Shown: piece by piece, positions 34,565 through 44,735 of the stretch
Layout of the letters: each line of letters opens with the position of its first letter
Position numbering within the stretch: the stretch's first letter is position 1
Source of the DNA: Spirochaetia bacterium
Lineage (GTDB): Bacteria > Spirochaetota > Spirochaetia > SP-2023
NCBI GenBank assembly: GCA_965225855.1
Contig: CBDDCK010000004.1
Location: 279,006 to 343,005 of the forward strand
Length of the DNA stretch: 64,000 nucleotides
Direction: 5' to 3'
Position numbers and translations under genes: made by a program
Notes under the pieces: generated by a model
The model's input: only the letters and a program-made list of their open reading frames with translations
Database searches by the model: none
Told to the model about the DNA's origin: nothing

Positions 34565-34906
34565 TTGGTATGGGCATCATACTGTTCATACATAAGCAAA
34601 GAAGCAACAACTTTCTTTTTTATACAGTATAACTTCCTTAAATATAATCAAGATAAGATATATCACATGCAAACTGGCGCAGCACAGCCACACATTTACC
34701 CAAAAGATTTTGAACGACTTATGGTGATTATATATAATGAAACGATCGACTTAAAATTAGAAGGCATACTTTCCTCATTTTTCGATATTATTGCAAACAA
34801 TAAAAAGCAAGCCCAAACACTAACCCAACTGCGCGATACCCTTTTACCAAAACTGCTATCCGGCCAACTGCGTATTGCCGATGTGGAAAATTTCATTAAA
34901 GACTAA
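34565..34906 (+). pseudogene. hsdS: Type I RM specificity subunit C-terminal fragment
   Basis: TGAAQPHI, TLTQLRDTLLPKLLSGQLRI; N-terminal part missing. Confidence 0.8.
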
Positions 34907-35773: not shown

Positions 35774-35980
35774 AGAATGCTCCTTTTAGTGTGGTATATT
35801 GCTGCCTAAAGGGTAACCTAAACCAAACAAAAAACAAATTGCACTAGTCCCCAACCAAAAATCAAAATAAAATATATAATACGGAGCGGTTTTCCGTTTT
35901 AATCTATAGCTGGAAGGCTAGGGGTTATAGGGCAGAGCCTAAAGCCATAACCACAAACCCCCAAAGGTAAGGGCGCATTG

Positions 35981-37027
35981 ATGCACATTAAAAGTATTAA
36001 AATTGAAAGTTTTAAGGGCTTTAACCGGGAAAGCGGTAGCTTTTTATTGGATAACATTAATAGCGGGCTCAACCTACTGGTTGGCCACCCGAACACCGGC
36101 AAAACTAGCGTGCTAGAAGCCGCAGTATTTGGTTTATCTCATCCACCCAATAACATCTTTACTTCGCTCTACCATGATTGGCATGAGGAGACAACCTTTG
36201 AAACAGTAAGCGACTTTAGGAAATTATTCCCGTTTAATTCAACAGATATGGAGCTGAACATAAGCATAGAAAGCCACCACGGCCAAAGGCAAGATTGCCA
36301 GGCATTTTGGCAAACCGATGATTTCGTCAATGAGGCTCTAGTTATCACCGATACAGCGCAACCCCCCGAATCCGATGCTCGGCCCCAAAGAACCATATCC
36401 TTAACGAACGGCCTAAATGGCGGACTTATGGCTGAAAGAAAGAGTCCAGCCCAACATTTCCCAGATATAGGTATAGCATGTGCGCACTTCGTTAGGGCCT
36501 TTGTACCCACCTTACAAGACCATGCTCTTAAAACACTTGAAGACTTAGCAATCGAACAAAGGCTTTGGCAACTCCTTAGGCCCATGCTGCCGGCCTTTAA
36601 GCAAATGCGGCTCAACGGCAGGGAACTAATCTTTTACGATGCCCAAGACCGCCCCATGCCATTGTCCTATATGGGCACTGGCATTATTAAAATGGTAAAA
36701 CTAATCCTACCTTTGTTTACTTTCCCAAACAGGGTATTTTTTATTGACGAAATAGCCGATTCCCTTCATCCGCAAAGCATTCTGCAATTCCTGCGTATCT
36801 TACTGCCGCTAATTGTGGAACAGAATATTCAAATTATCGCAACCAGCCATTCGTTCGATATATTAGATGTTCTGGCCCAAAATTATCAATCATTTCCAGA
36901 ATACCATCAATCGCTGCAAATACACCGCTTTCTATCCCAAGATAATGGTAAAACTAAGGTAAAACAAAGCTCATGGCAAGAAATGGAAGCTATCTTTCCC
37001 ACATTTATTGACGTAAGGGCGCAGTAA
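35981..37027 (+). CDS. AAA/ABC-type ATPase (AAA_15/AAA_21-like, defence-associated)
   Basis: IKIESFKG, Walker A GHPNTGKTS, signature MGTG, Walker B FFIDEIADSLHP, ATSHS. Confidence 0.85.
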   Translation: MHIKSIKIESFKGFNRESGSFLLDNINSGLNLLVGHPNTGKTSVLEAAVFGLSHPPNNIFTSLYHDWHEETTFETVSDFRKLFPFNSTDMELNISIESHHGQRQDCQAFWQTDDFVNEALVITDTAQPPESDARPQRTISLTNGLNGGLMAERKSPAQHFPDIGIACAHFVRAFVPTLQDHALKTLEDLAIEQRLWQLLRPMLPAFKQMRLNGRELIFYDAQDRPMPLSYMGTGIIKMVKLILPLFTFPNRVFFIDEIADSLHPQSILQFLRILLPLIVEQNIQIIATSHSFDILDVLAQNYQSFPEYHQSLQIHRFLSQDNGKTKVKQSSWQEMEAIFPTFIDVRAQ

Positions 37028-37686
37028 TGAAAGCTATCGTATCAGAAGGCCAAAGCGATGCTCTAGTTATACAAAAGATCATAGAATTACGGCAGCAAGA
37101 AACAGGGACAAAGCAGGGTATTCCGCCCATTAAATATTTGGATCCAAAAAGTTTTGCCAACCCTCAACAAACATTAAACCTAAATGGCGAAAATGTAATG
37201 AATATTATTTATACTCGCGGTAATACGCATTTATACCGGTTGGTTTGTGCTTTGTTTGACCAATACCAAGAGCAAAATATCGAGATATTGCTAATTTATG
37301 ATTTAGATAGCAAGGAAAGCGAACACCACTCAAATACACAAAAACTTATTAATGCTCTAGATTCTTCTAAACAATTACAAGAAAGACAAAGCCAAGGCTA
37401 CCTAGATTGCTTTACATTTCAGGAAGATTTGGAAGGCTTTTTAATAGAGTACCTAGAGAGCAACCGCCCCGATTGGTACCGTAATGTATGTAAATGCACC
37501 GAACCATGGCTAAAGTGCCTAAACGCAAGACCGGTATTTTCCGACTGGAAAAGCAATAAAAACAAAGAAGCACTATTGCGACTGATTTACCAAGCACAAA
37601 ATGCAGATGGTGCCCACTATGGTTTATTCCCCGAATCATTCTTTGAATGTTTTGGAATGTTTTGGAATGTTTTGATTGGGAACTAG
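37027..37686 (+). CDS. TOPRIM-like putative nuclease partner of the ATPase
   Basis: SEGQSD and YDLD motifs, LE.FL; stop/start overlap with the ATPase. Confidence 0.65.
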   Translation: MKAIVSEGQSDALVIQKIIELRQQETGTKQGIPPIKYLDPKSFANPQQTLNLNGENVMNIIYTRGNTHLYRLVCALFDQYQEQNIEILLIYDLDSKESEHHSNTQKLINALDSSKQLQERQSQGYLDCFTFQEDLEGFLIEYLESNRPDWYRNVCKCTEPWLKCLNARPVFSDWKSNKNKEALLRLIYQAQNADGAHYGLFPESFFECFGMFWNVLIGN

Positions 37687-37754: not shown

Positions 37755-37860
37755 TAAATATTTAGGCCAATATTCTATAGCACTTGCTTGACAAATGGGC
37801 GTAATTTGCAATAATAGTGCTTTATAAAAAATTACATATACATAAGGTGGAATATATGGC
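37755..37860 (+). repeat. 106-bp promoter+RBS+start module, copy 1
   Basis: 3 mismatches to 38819-38924; contains TTGACA, TGCAATAAT, TAAGGTGG, ATGGC. Confidence 0.92.
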
Positions 37861-38782
37861 ACAAAGAAAATCAGAATCTTCTACAAAAAAGCCAAGTTTA
37901 ACTATATCACGTGAACAGGTAAAGAAAGAACTTCAAGATCGAATTGATAAAGGCAAGGAGCTGCAAACACAGTCTAACAATTTAGTCTCAATTGGAGGTT
38001 TAGATCAATCCGAGTTTTGTCTGTTAACCGATTCAATGTCTAATAATTTAGCCTCAATTGAAGGTTTAGATCAATTGAGAACAGAACAAGACAAATGGCA
38101 TGAATATAATATAGAGTATCTGTCTCGTTGTTTTGATATTGATTCAATATCACAATCATATGAAAATCGTGGCATTCGTTTATTATCATTCGGCACAAGA
38201 GAAAGCCCAGTGGAACAAATTAAAAGATTCCAAAATAGAATCGGTGCTCAAATTACTGAGTTAGAGTCCATATTAGAGAGGCTCAAATTGATTCCAGAGC
38301 TTAATATCCCAGATACCCCCAATAAATTACTTCAAAAACAAAATACAAATGATAATAATTCCGTATTTATTGTTCATGGTCATGATGAATCAGCAAAAGC
38401 AAATGTTGCAAGATTAGTAGAAAAACTTGGAATGGAAGCTATTATTTTGCATGAACAACCAAATCAAGGGCGAACAATAATAGAAAAGCTTGAATCAAAT
38501 GCCGCAAGTGTTGGATTTGCTATTGTTTTACTGACTCCTGATGATACAATAGATTCTAATGGCAAGAAGCGTGCAAGACAAAATGTAATTATGGAACTAG
38601 GTTATTTTTGCGGTTTACTTGGGCGGAATAAAGTCTGTGTTCTTTATAAAGAGAATGTTGAAATACCCAGCGACTGCTTAGGTCTTGCTTATATTCCGTT
38701 AGATAGTAATGAGGGTTGGCATCTAAAACTTGCGAAAGAAATGAAAGAAGCTAAGCTAGATGTTGATCTTAACAAGATATAA
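37856..38782 (+). CDS. TIR-like domain protein (CAP12/Pycsar-type TIR)
   Basis: VFIVHGHD, IILHEQ...TIIEKLE, FAIVLLTPDD, RARQNVIMELGYF, EIPSD. Confidence 0.88.
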   Translation: MAQRKSESSTKKPSLTISREQVKKELQDRIDKGKELQTQSNNLVSIGGLDQSEFCLLTDSMSNNLASIEGLDQLRTEQDKWHEYNIEYLSRCFDIDSISQSYENRGIRLLSFGTRESPVEQIKRFQNRIGAQITELESILERLKLIPELNIPDTPNKLLQKQNTNDNNSVFIVHGHDESAKANVARLVEKLGMEAIILHEQPNQGRTIIEKLESNAASVGFAIVLLTPDDTIDSNGKKRARQNVIMELGYFCGLLGRNKVCVLYKENVEIPSDCLGLAYIPLDSNEGWHLKLAKEMKEAKLDVDLNKI

Positions 38783-38818: not shown

Positions 38819-38924
38819 TAAATATTTAGGCCAATATTCTATAGCGCTTGCTTGACAAATGGGCGTAATTGGCAATAATAGGGCTTTATAAAAAATTACA
38901 TATACATAAGGTGGAATATATGGC
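38819..38924 (+). repeat. 106-bp promoter+RBS+start module, copy 2
   Basis: Near-identical to 37755-37860. Confidence 0.92.
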
Positions 38925-39639
38925 CATACAATATGAATTACTAAAGAATCATTTGGGCGACGAACCAAAAGGCTACCATGCTTTGGTATGCAACCAAAGA
39001 ATCTATAACCGAAAAGAAATTATTGAAATGATGCTCAATCGCGGCACTCTATTGACCTCAACCGATATAGAAGCCGTATTAGCTTGTCTAGAAGATGTTA
39101 TCAAACAAGTAATAAAAAATGGCGAAGGCTTAAATACCGGTATCTTTACCATGCGTATAGACATTAAAGGCAGATTCCCTGACCCGAACAGCCATTTTGA
39201 CAAAGCCCACAACAACTTGGCCATTAATATGACGGCCAGCAAATCCTTAAAAGAATCGCTGGAAGATATTGAGCTAGAGCGGGTCTATAGCTCTGGTAAA
39301 GAAGCCCAAATAACTATGGTGGAAGACATAAACAGCCAAAAGAAAGACAGCGTCCTGACCCCGGCAGGCCCCTTAAAGGTTTGGGGCAATCGCATCAAAA
39401 TAAGTGCCAGTGCCCCCGTTGCCGATAATCAAGAAGGGTTATATGCGGTAAATATAGCCGATGATACGGCAACCAAGTTTGGTACCGAGATCAACAATAA
39501 GCCTTCCGAGTTGATTTATATAGTGCCATCGTTAACAGCCGGGAAATACAAGCTAGAAGTACGTACCTATAACACCGGCTCTAGCGTAGGAAAGCTGCTA
39601 AAAGTCATTACCTCGGAGGCCACATTTACCGTTAGTTAA
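38920..39639 (+). CDS. HU-like DNA-binding domain protein with C-terminal Ig-like (DUF4469-like) domain
   Basis: Y.L..N.L, DIEAVL, I.G.F, G..IKI, NKPSELI..VP.L.AG.Y.LEVRT. Confidence 0.75.
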   Translation: MAIQYELLKNHLGDEPKGYHALVCNQRIYNRKEIIEMMLNRGTLLTSTDIEAVLACLEDVIKQVIKNGEGLNTGIFTMRIDIKGRFPDPNSHFDKAHNNLAINMTASKSLKESLEDIELERVYSSGKEAQITMVEDINSQKKDSVLTPAGPLKVWGNRIKISASAPVADNQEGLYAVNIADDTATKFGTEINNKPSELIYIVPSLTAGKYKLEVRTYNTGSSVGKLLKVITSEATFTVS

Positions 39640-39771
39640 AAGGGCATAAAAGCTGGGAAGTCCATTCCCCCATTGCTGTTTTACGCTAATAGTGCCAAGG
39701 TTTCTGCCGATCTACTAAGATCATGGGGCAACATCGCTAGGCTTTCCGCTAAAACGTGAAAGGCAAAACAA

Positions 39772-42100
39772 ATGAGCTTGATACAAAAGGGCATTGACCG
39801 TGGTTTAATTACATTTGACAATGAGAAAAAAACTATAACCTATGTTCACCAAAATAAAAGGCGTAACTACAACAGACCAGAAGAACAAGTACAAGCGGAA
39901 TCTTTTCTCAAACTGGTTTTGGACTATGGCTACAGCCCTAAGCGAATTGAACAATTTGTAGCGGTAACAATGGGTGCTGATACCAGAGAAGCGGATATTA
40001 TCGTGTACAACGATGATCAACATCACTCTGCCCATATTGTGGTTGAATGTAAGAAAGAAGATGTTTCGGAACTAGAATTTCAGCAGGCTATAGCTCAAGC
40101 CTTTAGTTATGCCGCTACTGGCACGGTGAGAGCGAAATATTTCTGGGTAACCTCCAGAATAAAAAATACTTGTTTTGCAATACCCGAACAAGAACCGAAG
40201 AACTATCGTTCTATTCCGGACATACCCAGATATGGTGCGGATAAACCAACCGAGTATAAATATGCCAAAGGTGGTGTTTCTACAGATGGGCAAACCTTAT
40301 TTGAGCTAGAACAGGTTACGGAAAGCGACCTTACCCAAATATTTAAGCAAGCCCATAATTCCCTTTGGGGTGGTGGTGAGCTAAACCCTTCCGAAGCCTT
40401 TGACGTCTTCTGATTTGTTCAGACTTTTGTTGGTTTCTACAGATGGGCAAACCTTATTTGAGCTAGAACAGGTTACGGAAAGCGACCTTACCCAAATATT
40501 TAAGCAAGCCCATAATTCCCTTTGGGGTGGTGGTGAGCTAAACCCTTCCGAAGCCTTTGACGAGTTGGATAAGCTGATATTTTGCAAAATGTGGGACGAA
40601 GGCAAACCGCGTATAAAAGGCGAGCCGTACGACTTCCAGATATTTAGCAAAAGTACGGAAGAACAAACAAAAACAGCATTACAGCAACGCATCAATAAGT
40701 TGTATAAAGAAGGGCGCGAAAAAGATCGGGAAGTATTTAAAGATAATATACGCTTGAGTAAAGAGAAACTATATACCGTTGTCGGTTATCTGCAAGGTAT
40801 CCATTTAGGCGATACCGATTTAGACAGCAAAGGCAGGGCTTTTGAAACTTTTATGGGCTCGTTCTTTCGCGGTGATTTTGGCCAATACTTTACCCCACGC
40901 CCGATTGTCAAATTTATTGTCGATACCTTGCCGATTAACCATAATTCAAAGGTGCTAGATACTTCCTGCGGCAGTGGCGGTTTTTTATTACACGCTTTGG
41001 ATAAAGTTAGAAAGCAAGCCGATGATTATTACAATCAAGTTACAGAGAGTAAACAACACTTGCTGCATTGGCACGACTTTGCTAAAGAAAACTTGTTTGG
41101 TATAGAAATCAATGAGCAAATAGCCCGCACTGCCAAAATGAACATGATTATCCATGATGATGGCCATACCAATGTAATTACGGCAGATGGTTTATTGCCG
41201 ATTGATGATATTAAAGATGCAGATGGTAAAGTTACCCAGCAAGGCATTTTTTCCAAAACCAAGAATAATGGTTTTATCTATGGTAGCTTTGATTTTATTG
41301 TTACTAATCCGCCCTTTGGCTCTAGTATTAAACAAACCGAACAAGCCTATATGCACCAGTACGGCCTTGCAATAAAAGAGGTGGACTGGCTAGAGCCGAA
41401 AAGCAAACAGAGCAAGCGGGATAGCCAGAACACAGAAGTTTTGTTTATTGAGCAGTGTTATAAGTTCTTAAAAGAAGGTGCTTATCTAGCCATTGTATTG
41501 CCCGATGGGGTTTTAACAAACTCTACTTTGCAATATGTTCGCAACGATATTGCGCAAAAGTTTCGCATTGTGGCGGTGGTTTCCATGCCACAAAGTGCCT
41601 TCCAAGCAACGGGAGCTGGGGTTAAAAGCTCTGTACTGTTTTTGAAAAAACATACCGCAGAATTTACAGAGAAACTCCAAAATCACAAAACAAAGCTGCA
41701 CGATGATATTAAGGACAAGCACAAATACCTAGAACAATTGGCAGAAATAGAACAAACAAAAAAACAACATATCAAAAACTTGAACGGTTTTGATAATCCA
41801 GCAGGATTAACAGGCAAAGCCCTTAGCCAAGACCCAAGCTATAGGGAATGGAAAGCGTGCGTAAATGCCCAATATAGAGAACAAATAGATTTGCTAAAAG
41901 AAAATTTGAGCGAGCAATATACACAACAACAAAAAGCAAAAACCATAGACGACTACCCTATTTTTATGGCAATTGCTGAAGATATAGGCTATGATGCTAC
42001 GGGAAAAGATACAGGGAATAATGAGCTTGATTTTATAGCTGAAAAGTTATCTGAATTTATTGAAGGCATTGAAAAAGGAAAAGACTCTTTTTTCGTCTAA
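39772..42100 (+). CDS. Fused restriction (HsdR N-terminal-type nuclease) / N6-adenine methyltransferase, interrupted by a 157-nt duplication
   Basis: PEEQVQ, ADI...VECK nuclease motif; GQYFTPR, DTSCGSGGF, TNPPFG; 723 aa if the duplication is removed. Confidence 0.88.
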
Positions 42101-42135
42101 GCCCTTCTGAAAAGATATTTTTACTTCAGAAGGGC
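42088..42135 (+). promoter_or_regulatory. Putative -1 programmed ribosomal frameshift signal
   Basis: T_TTT_TTC in frame, 6-nt spacer, perfect 11-bp stem GCCCTTCTGAA/TTCAGAAGGGC. Confidence 0.75.
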
Positions 42136-42162
42136 GAATTAGAAGACAGATTAGACCCTATA

Positions 42163-43533
42163 ATGGCACTTTATCAAAAAAGAACAAATCAATTCAAATT
42201 TGAAACAAAACATTTATCAGAACTATTACAACGAAAACCCCAGTATGGTGCAAATGAAGTTGGAGTTGAAAGATTATCAAATGAACAGCCAAGATATATA
42301 CGAATTACTGACATTGATGAATACGGACTATTGAAACAAGGAATGGGTAAAACAGCAAACAACATTGAGCCAAAATATATGTTAAATAATAATGAATTAT
42401 TATTTGCCCGCAGTGGGACTGTTGGTAAGTCATATATACATAAAACAGAATATGTCAGTTATCCGTGTTTTTATGCAGGCTACATGATTAGATTTGTTGT
42501 AAATGAAGAAAAGATAAACCCGGACTATCTTTTTATATATACTCAACTTTCAGTATATAAGGAGTGGGTGAATGCTATCCAACGTGTGGCTGCCCAGCCT
42601 AATATAAATGCAAAGGAATATCAATCACTAAAAATTCCCCTACCACCCCAAGAAATCCAAGCACAAATAGTGGCAAAGATGGATAATGCTTATGCTGACA
42701 AAAGGCAAAAAGAAACAGAAGCGCAGCAATTACTGGATAGCATTGATAATTATGTACTGGGAGAGCTGGGCATTGAATTGCCACAACAACCAGAGAATAC
42801 TATTGAAAACCGTATGTTTATAAGGCATTTCAGCGATATTTCGGGCGGGCGGTTTGATCCTAAGCTATATGACAAGAATACTAATGCTCTAAAAAAAGCT
42901 ATTTCAAACTCATCTTATCCAACTTTAAAACTTGAAGAGTTTATAATCCAAAGTATTTCAGGCGATTGGGGAAAAGATATTACAGAAGATTCAAGTCCAG
43001 AATACCAAAAGTGTCTTGTCATCAGAGCAACCGAATTTGACAATTTTTACAATCTAAATCTTAATAACTCAAGGATTAAATTTAGGCTTATTCAAACAGA
43101 GAAACTTAGAAAAATTGATATACAAACAAATGATTTATTGATTGAAAAATCTGGGGGCAGCCCAGACCAACCAGTAGGTCGTATTGCAATAATAAGCGAA
43201 GAATTATTAAAAAGTCATAATCTCTGTTATAGCAATTTCATTCATAAAATCAGGGTTTCATCTCTAATAAATCCCGAATATTTATTTTGTTTTCTAAGAA
43301 CAATCCACAATATAAAACTTACTAATTCAATGCAGAGCCAAACAAATGGTATTAGAAACCTAATAATGAAAGATTATTTTAATCAAAAAATACCCCTACC
43401 GCCTTTAGAAAAGCAAATAGAAATAGTCCATCATATTGCCAATCTTCGCAACAAGACCAAAGAGCTAAAGCAACAAGCCCAAGATATTTTAGAACAAGCA
43501 AAATTAGCAGTGGAACAAATTATATTAGGCTAG
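42163..43533 (+). CDS. hsdS: RM specificity subunit (two TRDs); frame open upstream to 42073
   Basis: YIRITDI, LFARSGTVGK, QPNIN, IPLPP..Q twice. Confidence 0.9.
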   Translation: MALYQKRTNQFKFETKHLSELLQRKPQYGANEVGVERLSNEQPRYIRITDIDEYGLLKQGMGKTANNIEPKYMLNNNELLFARSGTVGKSYIHKTEYVSYPCFYAGYMIRFVVNEEKINPDYLFIYTQLSVYKEWVNAIQRVAAQPNINAKEYQSLKIPLPPQEIQAQIVAKMDNAYADKRQKETEAQQLLDSIDNYVLGELGIELPQQPENTIENRMFIRHFSDISGGRFDPKLYDKNTNALKKAISNSSYPTLKLEEFIIQSISGDWGKDITEDSSPEYQKCLVIRATEFDNFYNLNLNNSRIKFRLIQTEKLRKIDIQTNDLLIEKSGGSPDQPVGRIAIISEELLKSHNLCYSNFIHKIRVSSLINPEYLFCFLRTIHNIKLTNSMQSQTNGIRNLIMKDYFNQKIPLPPLEKQIEIVHHIANLRNKTKELKQQAQDILEQAKLAVEQIILG

Positions 43534-43556
43534 GTAAAAGAAATTATCTATGGCTT

Positions 43557-44735
43557 TTATGATTCCAATAAGTGGAAGGTTGAGATTTCGGTTAGCAGTG
43601 GCCGAATATGTACTATTGCTCCTGACTGATAAGATGGCGCAGATAGCTTGCAACGCACAATCAATTTTATCTCTGGGAATTGTTCGTTACGGCAGTAGAC
43701 TTCACGGTAAGAACCACAGTAGCGTTGCTCGACAATTCGGGTGTGGCCATAAGTTCCCAAAGATTCTGTAGGGGATTCTGTAGATGATTCTGTAGAGAAA
43801 CATAATTGTTCAGGCCGCAAACAAAGGCTAACTTGAGAGCTTCTTGGGTAGTCTTTTGGGGAATTTTTTGGGGAGCTTTGATTATGGCCTATGTCTTTTA
43901 CAGCTGCTTTATCTTTGGCTTTGGCTTTCGCTTTGGGGATTGGGCCGATAGGGCTTTGCCAATATTGGGGGTCAGGGCTAGGGCACAAGGGCAAAATATT
44001 CACTTTATCCAAGTATCTAGCTACATAGGCATTAACGGGTTTCTCGTAAAGATTGCGGGCACTGCCTGTTTGTAAAAGCTGGCCATTGCGAATAATAGCT
44101 AATCGATTGGCAATCTGGAATGCCTCATTTTTATCGTGAGTAATATACAATACCCGCATTTGGTAGTATTCTACCAGCTCTCTAATATGGCAAAGCATTT
44201 GCTCGCATAGTTCTTGATCGACACTATTGAGCGGCTCATCTAAAATTAATAGCTGGGGCTGGCTGGCCAATACACGGGCTAAAGCAACACGCTGCATTTG
44301 GCCACCAGAAAGTTCGTGTGGATAGCGCAGTGCTAAATTTAAAGCCTTGAGCCTACAAGCTTCTAAAAGGTTTTGCATTATATCTTGCCTTTTGGCCTTA
44401 CTCAATTTTTTGCTCACCCCAAATAAAATATTTTCGCTTACATTTAGGTGGGGAAACAAAGCGTAATCTTGAAACAATACTCCTACTTTGCGAGCTTCGG
44501 GTGGTAGATAGCATGTGCTTGACGCAACTTCAAGCCCGTTGACGATAACCTTGCCAGAACTGGGACGCAAAAAACCAGCAAATAAGCGCAATATACTGGT
44601 TTTGCCAGAACCACTTTCTCCCAATAGAGCGGTAACCCCTTTATCGCCAACGGTCAGCGAAAGGCCTTGAACACAGTAATTTGTTGGTTGCTTTGGGTTA
44701 TAAGATGCTGAAACTGATTTCAGACAGGTTTCCAT
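43557..44735 (-). CDS. Fe3+ ABC transporter ATP-binding protein (FbpC-like)
   Basis: GESGSGKTS, FQDYALFPHL, LSGGQMQR. Confidence 0.9.
   Translation of the reverse strand: METCLKSVSASYNPKQPTNYCVQGLSLTVGDKGVTALLGESGSGKTSILRLFAGFLRPSSGKVIVNGLEVASSTCYLPPEARKVGVLFQDYALFPHLNVSENILFGVSKKLSKAKRQDIMQNLLEACRLKALNLALRYPHELSGGQMQRVALARVLASQPQLLILDEPLNSVDQELCEQMLCHIRELVEYYQMRVLYITHDKNEAFQIANRLAIIRNGQLLQTGSARNLYEKPVNAYVARYLDKVNILPLCPSPDPQYWQSPIGPIPKAKAKAKDKAAVKDIGHNQSSPKNSPKDYPRSSQVSLCLRPEQLCFSTESSTESPTESLGTYGHTRIVEQRYCGSYREVYCRNEQFPEIKLIVRCKLSAPSYQSGAIVHIRPLLTEISTFHLLES

Follow-up and report, generated by a model that had tools for sequence, protein, structure and literature searches.

Type IIB systems of restriction-modification (R-M) have been sorted into those with a fused endonuclease-methyltransferase (RM) plus a specificity subunit (S), called 'RM + S', and single-chain 'RMS' enzymes (PMC11997821). 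BsaXI, which belongs to the first kind, is an (RM)2S complex; the word frameshift is absent from the accessible text of the paper that makes this division (PMC11997821). Here we describe a related locus in a 64,000-nt stretch of DNA (hereafter the window) from Spirochaetia bacterium (assembly GCA_965225855.1, contig CBDDCK010000004.1, positions 279,006-343,005 of the forward strand). The S frame of this locus begins within the end of the RM gene, in the -1 frame, and lacks a start of its own. A heptamer, spacer and hairpin at the RM/S junction are conserved in relatives. We consider, with a probability of roughly 0.8, that they constitute a programmed -1 ribosomal frameshift signal in a BsaXI-like Type IIB system, which would give both free RM and an RM-S fusion.

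The RM/S junction

The slippery heptamer T_TTT_TTC (Phe-Phe) lies on the + strand at positions 42088-42094 of the window, in the RM frame, whose open reading frame (ORF) ends at the stop codon TAA (42098-42100). The 6-nt spacer GTCTAA (42095-42100, +) contains the final RM codon and the stop. It is followed by a perfect 11-bp hairpin (42101-42135, +; stem 42101-42111/42125-42135) with a 13-nt loop, located within the S-coding sequence. From 42073 onwards the -1 frame stays open over 486 codons, with no ATG, GTG or TTG before 42163. A preliminary description of this DNA had proposed a -1 frameshift here, and its coordinates for the heptamer, spacer, stem, S frame and an upstream AGGA run are all correct. 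The junction region has a folding z-score of -4.95, and none of 200 shuffled sequences is equally stable. The genome has 392 in-frame T_TTT_TTY sites in 1646 long ORFs; only one of the 392, this junction, is followed by a hairpin of -15 kcal/mol or better and has a -1 frame open for at least 100 codons.

A seventh T in the reads, making RM and S one continuous ORF, had been named as an observation that would overturn the proposal; short-read contigs show T6C instead. In Logan contigs from three runs of a single sample, which may be the source sample, the covered junction shows no differences and no gaps, so T6C is not an assembly indel. The AGGA run (42076-42079, +), which resembles a Shine-Dalgarno (SD) sequence, finds no support as a selected stimulator. 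It is weak (-5.6 kcal/mol, 7 nt 5' of the heptamer), derives from a conserved Gly codon and is equally strong in in-frame fusions. Across loci, the upstream SD-like energies range from -1.7 to -12.2 kcal/mol, mostly -3 to -6, at 7-9 nt from the heptamer. The Rfam search gave three matches at E 0.16, far under the gathering scores.

Distribution and conservation of the junction

Homologues of the RM protein number in the thousands. Among the best 80 loci from GTDB, five break off ahead of the junction, 66 have an RM stop but lack a Phe-Phe (FF) junction, seven are in-frame RM-S fusions and two, from Ekhidna (L049) and a gammaproteobacterium (L068), are arranged as in the window. Many of the 66 show an ATGA or GTGA overlap into an S gene that starts like MSFxLSPxxDxNKIFL; in the others the S start lies nearby, another ORF intervenes or the locus is truncated.

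Metagenomes were scanned with a pattern back-translated from F-I-x-x-V/I-E-x-G-x-D-x-F-F, in which wobble bases and all downstream sequence were left free. This gave at least 124 matches; among the matches listed, 37 hit the RM protein, and three of these (L091, L154 and L208) were moved to the background as pattern-only. The listed metagenomic RM matches, nine FF loci from GTDB and the window together form a set of 44 FF-junction loci. For the metagenome part, this and the counts derived from it refer to the matches listed. S is in the -1 frame in 30 of the 44, in frame in 13 and in the +1 frame in one. A further -1 locus (L218) was found by a plain protein search of 401 genomes. On inspection, the candidates L117 and L130 proved not to be RM genes. 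A tblastn search of plasmids with the RM C-terminus gave no match, and no viral contig carried the alignment, the four viral pattern matches not being RM genes.

The heptamer T_TTT_TTY is present in all 44 FF-junction RM loci; among 68 distinct matches that fit the same protein-level pattern but are not RM genes, seven have it. Further comparisons were made on 23 distinct -1 loci, a set that excludes near-duplicates (L100, L140, L160, L179, L185, L196), L101 (noisy) and L112 (+1). Codon usage predicts T_TTT_TTY in 6.4 of these 23. The second codon of the heptamer is TTC in seven and TTT in 16, the zero-frame stop comes one codon after the heptamer in 21, and the spacer is 6 nt long in all 23 aligned loci.

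The 50 nt that follow the spacer have a median folding energy of -19.6 kcal/mol, with z below -2 against synonymous-codon controls in 20 of the 23 loci. The homologous stretch reaches this level in none of the 13 in-frame fusions and in two of 27 ATGA/GTGA-overlap loci. In the stem, 93 per cent of cells are paired, with 29 double-sided changes distributed over six of ten pairs, versus 34-59 per cent paired at slid-position controls; RNAalifold recovers the same stem unaided. None of 500 shuffles reaches the covariation score, although the -1 loci are related and kinship alone can beat shuffles in such a test. The contrast between junction classes is therefore the stronger evidence. The alignment of homologous loci, proposed earlier as a check, thus bears out the heptamer, the 6-nt spacer, the hairpin and its compensatory changes.

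On a tree of 89 RM proteins (L002, L062 and L077, with a short open stretch, and L071 were left out), the -1 type needs four changes, three of which are forced by well-supported branches. RM proteins that are nearly identical can carry a fused or a separate form (L007 and L008), a pattern suggestive of movement of the junction, together with S, by recombination.

The beginning of the S subunit

The S frame (42094-43533, +) has 479 codons and encodes a two-domain Methylase_S protein with two target-recognition domains (TRDs). There are two PF01420 stretches, and the halves align to each other at E 4e-12. The first ATG, at 42163, corresponds to residue 24. The preceding segment (42094-42162, +), RLSPSEKIFLLQKGELEDRLDPI, has its homologue in the N-terminus of S subunits that are started separately. 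Three of the six invariant columns in an alignment of 49 S sequences (F9, R19 and D21) fall upstream of this ATG. By these comparisons the segment belongs to the genuine S sequence, as the preliminary description had supposed. The structure model lends modest backing, with a pLDDT of 90.7 overall, and 57 and 73 for residues 1-10 and 11-20.

S could instead be made separately, by coupling or reinitiation at ATG 42163 or at a near-cognate codon; the hairpin would then only lower S synthesis or protect the RM message, and so set a 2:1 ratio. Most relatives are indeed coupled two-gene systems with an ATGA or GTGA overlap. A start codon at the homologous S position is, however, missing in 22 of the 23 -1 loci, the exception being a TTG in L120, and start codons further downstream vary among the loci; in L150 a stretch of 40 codons contains none. 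Separate initiation, as expected of a Type IIB 'RM + S' system, finds no homologous start here. ATG 42163 has an SD energy of -0.6, whereas the median in 40 S genes started at an overlap is -6.8, and a product begun at this ATG would lose the three invariant residues. A U-tract is missing from the hairpin, as neither strand has a T-run after the stem, and the hairpin is not among the five terminator-like sites at 39600-43600 found by a scan restricted to loops of 3-8 nt. Separate initiation would also leave the conserved heptamer unexplained, and we regard it as improbable. Taken together, the heptamer, the covarying hairpin, the lack of a conserved S start and the homologous upstream segment strongly support the core of the earlier proposal.

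In-frame fusions and homopolymer runs

Natural in-frame RM-S fusions join RM and S at the same DxFF position. Exactly nine T residues (T9) are found at the junction in 13 of 13 such fusions (3.8 expected), many of them close cyanobacterial kin. This T9 is the sole run of eight or more T or A in the 33,864 nt of the 13 genes, and stops are located 0 and 3 codons into the shifted frames. Two further T9 in-frame fusions were seen. The T9 loci (L007, L010, L012, L019, L020, L022, L025, L118, L126, L127, L137, L168, L204, L211 and L213) are cyanobacterial where named. From its sequence, the T9 junction is a candidate slippage site that would release free RM.

Two distant in-frame RM-S fusions (L083 and L085) carry A10 at the junction, with stops near in both shifted frames. 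A third RM gene (L220, 2660-2700; 685 aa) ends just past an A9 run; its two-domain S frame lies in -1 and has no start, and a strong hairpin is missing.

FF is present at the junction in 71 of 74 long homologues with a full-length S tail, versus three of 35 with a half-length tail, in a set of 120 that is rich in Microcystis and also includes one homologue with a shorter tail and ten without the anchor. Such an association would follow if extra RM were needed by full S fusions only.

These runs raise the question of whether the fusion in the window's family arises on the T run itself, either because transcription slips and adds a U to the mRNA or because replication slips (phase variation), with no part for the ribosome. 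Bacterial transcription slippage is described on runs of nine A or T (PMC5009743). T7 is found in 16 of the 23 -1 loci and T9 in the in-frame class. L112 has one T fewer than its close relatives at the slip site, which puts S in the +1 frame and may be an assembly error or a natural slip mutation. The run in the window is only T6C, and the contigs show no length variant here, although contigs drop rare variants. While RNA polymerase sits on the run, the 3' hairpin is still untranscribed and cannot aid transcriptional slippage; even so, its conservation is restricted to the -1 class. Together with the heptamers of a second family described below, which are not homopolymers, this leaves slippage on the run with small odds, and ribosomal frameshifting as the preferred reading.

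A second, BcgI-like family

The S genes of BcgI-like systems in Helicobacter pylori have been reported to lack a start codon (PMC3936762). A second family, which includes such genes and has 25 per cent identity over 146 aa with that of the window, gave 47 matches in 401 genomes of one order, and the best 30 of the 47 loci were examined. In 20 of the 30 (the query's own locus counted) a perfect heptamer lies at most five codons from the stop, the -1 frame is open, and a hairpin is present with an energy of -11.9 to -23.8 kcal/mol. At the locus L222, for example, RM ends with G_GGA_AAG, a stop and a hairpin, and S is in the -1 frame. Among the 20 loci the heptamer is G_GGA_AAR in 12, C_CCA_AAG in five, A_AAT_TTT in two and A_AAA_AAG in one. 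One of the remaining loci is imperfect and nine are in-frame or broken fusions. The loci of this family are L222 and L227-L256; in L253, S is in frame, with G_GGA_AAC and a hairpin, and the -1 frame stops two codons on.

The RM proteins of four C_CCA_AAG loci carry the NCBI name H. pylori. From their size and poly-G layout we infer that these loci correspond to HP1472. They end with C_CCA_AAG, a stop and a hairpin of -18 to -22 kcal/mol. In the H. pylori-type loci (L248-L251) a GTG without SD overlaps the stop, so coupling may still operate there, a point in favour of separate S synthesis. Because neither G_GGA_AAG nor C_CCA_AAG can serve as a homopolymer slippage site, these heptamers speak for slippage on the ribosome. 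The heptamers of this family are also among the motifs reported to be most efficient in Escherichia coli (PMC4066793).

The interrupted RM gene

In this genome the RM gene is split into two ORFs of 213 and 566 aa by a 157-bp insertion. The N-terminal part (endonuclease, HSDR_N_2, PF13588 E 8.5e-16; 39772-40413, +) is shortened to 213 aa. The 566-aa ORF (40400-42100, +) contains the methyltransferase (N6_Mtase, with the motifs DTSCGSGGFL and NPPF) and ends with DSFFV. The interruption (40276-40562, +) is a perfect 130-bp direct duplication (40276-40405 and 40433-40562) around a 27-bp insert (40406-40432), and it shifts the RM frame. The insert is identical to positions 107116-107142 on contig C1 of the same genome. 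Unitig depths are 13-15 for the 130-nt repeat, 7-8 for an 87-nt unitig across the insert and 6-9 for the flanks. They fit a duplication present in most molecules; a library chimera common to all three runs may also be its source. A relative in a sequencing run of another study has no 157-bp insertion. The structure resembles a template-switch insertion, which recombination between the repeats could reverse.

No ORF longer than 600 aa is present between 34 and 50 kb of the window. As assembled, the interrupted RM gene does not encode the products of 723 and 1201 aa given in the preliminary description; these lengths hold only minus the 157 bp. The possible TTG starts of the methyltransferase ORF have no SD. 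With RM interrupted upstream, and with no SD at these restarts, the system of this genome is likely inactive, or at most reduced to methylation, and a working system here appears doubtful from its sequence. The intact relative P0003 (725 aa, 87 per cent identical over the M part) has the endonuclease and N6-methyltransferase in one chain, with no translocase; its best PDB match is RM.BsaXI (E 8e-48).

The broken gene might mean that the locus is degenerate: a coupled S gene would have lost its start, and the motif and hairpin would be accidents in a pseudogene. The junction is also colinear, with no indels, with the ATGA-overlap junctions, so point mutations could have erased a start. But the same cassette, a long open S and compensatory changes occur in 23 distinct loci and in L218, and the cassette occupies at least three places of the RM tree. 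For the family this reading is largely refuted, and even for the window's locus it is very improbable.

Proposed mechanism

Three parts of a -1 frameshift cassette are present: a slippery heptamer, a 3' structure under selection and a functional start-less -1 ORF. Motifs of the form H_HH.U_UU.Y are among the most efficient in E. coli (PMC4066793), and the usual spacer between heptamer and structure is 5-9 nt (PMC5009743). In the proposed mechanism, the hairpin would stall the ribosome with two tRNA-Phe on UUU UUC, and both tRNAs would re-pair one base back. Shifted ribosomes would continue as DSFF-RLSPSEK through the two-TRD S domain and produce RM-S; those that do not slip would stop one codon later, giving an RM that ends with DSFFV. 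RM and RM-S would then form an (RM)2S-type enzyme, with the slip rate setting their ratio. An engineered M-S fusion of EcoKI cleaved in vitro only with extra M (PMC3510504). Given this requirement and the composition of BsaXI, RM and RM-S would be expected to build the same enzyme. We regard frameshifting in the family as very probable, and the heteromeric RM/RM-S assembly as somewhat favoured.

Several points weigh against this mechanism. The arrangement is a minority, found in two of the 75 loci with a visible junction among the best 80 from GTDB, and nine of 119 other near-length proteins end with FF(x)*. Of the 16 -1 loci in the tree, 11 belong to a single clade, so the counts make the loci look more independent than they are. 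S is in the +1 frame in L112, and the -1 frame of L101 closes after 18 codons. The window's own RM copy is broken upstream. At a C-REase junction, experiments failed to show the frameshift that had been predicted (PMC3850674). Nor is free RM always needed: TstI and similar single-chain Type IIB enzymes work as homotetramers in its absence (PMC4027205), and a strong slip signal is missing from several of the in-frame fusions in the second family.

Recoding may be a general and convergent control of stoichiometry in Type IIB systems, a wider proposal for which we see about even chances. Families unrelated to one another would convert RM to RM-S by -1 ribosomal frameshifting on U_UUU_UUY, G_GGA_AAR, C_CCA_AAG or A_AAA_AAG. 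Slippage on T9 or A10 would release free RM from annotated single-chain RM-S proteins, and 'RM + S' systems, including the BcgI-like ones of H. pylori, would really be RM + RM-S.

Neighbouring genes

Upstream of the RM locus there is a defence cluster. It includes a CAP12/Pycsar-type TIR domain protein (37817-38782; PADLOC PDC-S35, E 1e-74). At 35978-37686 there is an AAA ATPase resembling AbiLi/PDC-M38A with a 219-aa partner that has no Pfam or PADLOC match; these two probably form a two-gene defence system. The TIR ORF and an ORF for an HU-like DNA-binding protein start, at 37817-37860 and 38869-38925 respectively, with the same peptide, LYKKLHIHKVEYMA, which points to a repeated upstream leader. 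A 113-aa ORF (34565-34906) has no Pfam match, and its end resembles by eye the C-terminus of a Type I HsdS; it is possibly a remnant of another R-M system.

Comparison with known systems

We found no description of a frameshifted Type IIB RM-S in the literature searched, a search that did not extend to supplements (the GeneTack tables of PMC3711429 and the 69 clusters of PMC4066793), REBASE notes or subscription journals. Word look-ups in the accessible text of PMC3711429, PMC5009743, PMC11997821 and PMC12707154 gave none either. If the proposed mechanism is true, Type IIB systems would gain an architecture of a third kind, intermediate between 'RM + S' and single-chain 'RMS', and for many S genes the annotated start would be false and the cloned form wrong. 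The mechanism would also give a testable answer to the question of how BcgI-like systems of H. pylori have an S without a usable start while a homologue methylates natively. To our knowledge, conserved frameshifting in non-mobile bacterial genes is limited to a few cases (dnaX, csoS2 and a handful more).

The family resembles BsaXI and BcgI in having, in intact relatives, a fused endonuclease-methyltransferase without a motor, and the locus shares with them a Type I-like S with two TRDs. It differs from them in that S has no start of its own and is predicted to be reached by frameshifting. Like the predicted fusion, TstI, AloI and HaeIV have RM-S in one chain of about 1200 aa, but they are in-frame homo-oligomers (PMC4027205), whereas the type found in the window is predicted to give both chains from one message. 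The BcgI-like systems of H. pylori (HP1472/HP1471, JHP1365/1364 and HpyUM032XIII) would share, judged by the loci with H. pylori-named RM proteins, an RM end with a heptamer, a stop and a hairpin; unlike the window's locus, those loci have a GTG without SD overlapping the stop, and the RM identity is only distant. Different bacteria express dnaX by ribosomal frameshifting, by a reversed version that has its stop in frame 0, or by slippage on T or A runs (PMC5009743), a variety that parallels the junction types of the Type IIB loci. As in dnaX (tau/gamma) and the -1 cassettes of the IS1/IS3 type, a heptamer and a 3' stem are associated here with a predicted long and short subunit of one complex. 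The differences are the gene family, the heptamer U_UUU_UUY, the lack of a supported SD stimulator and a cassette that is predicted from sequence.

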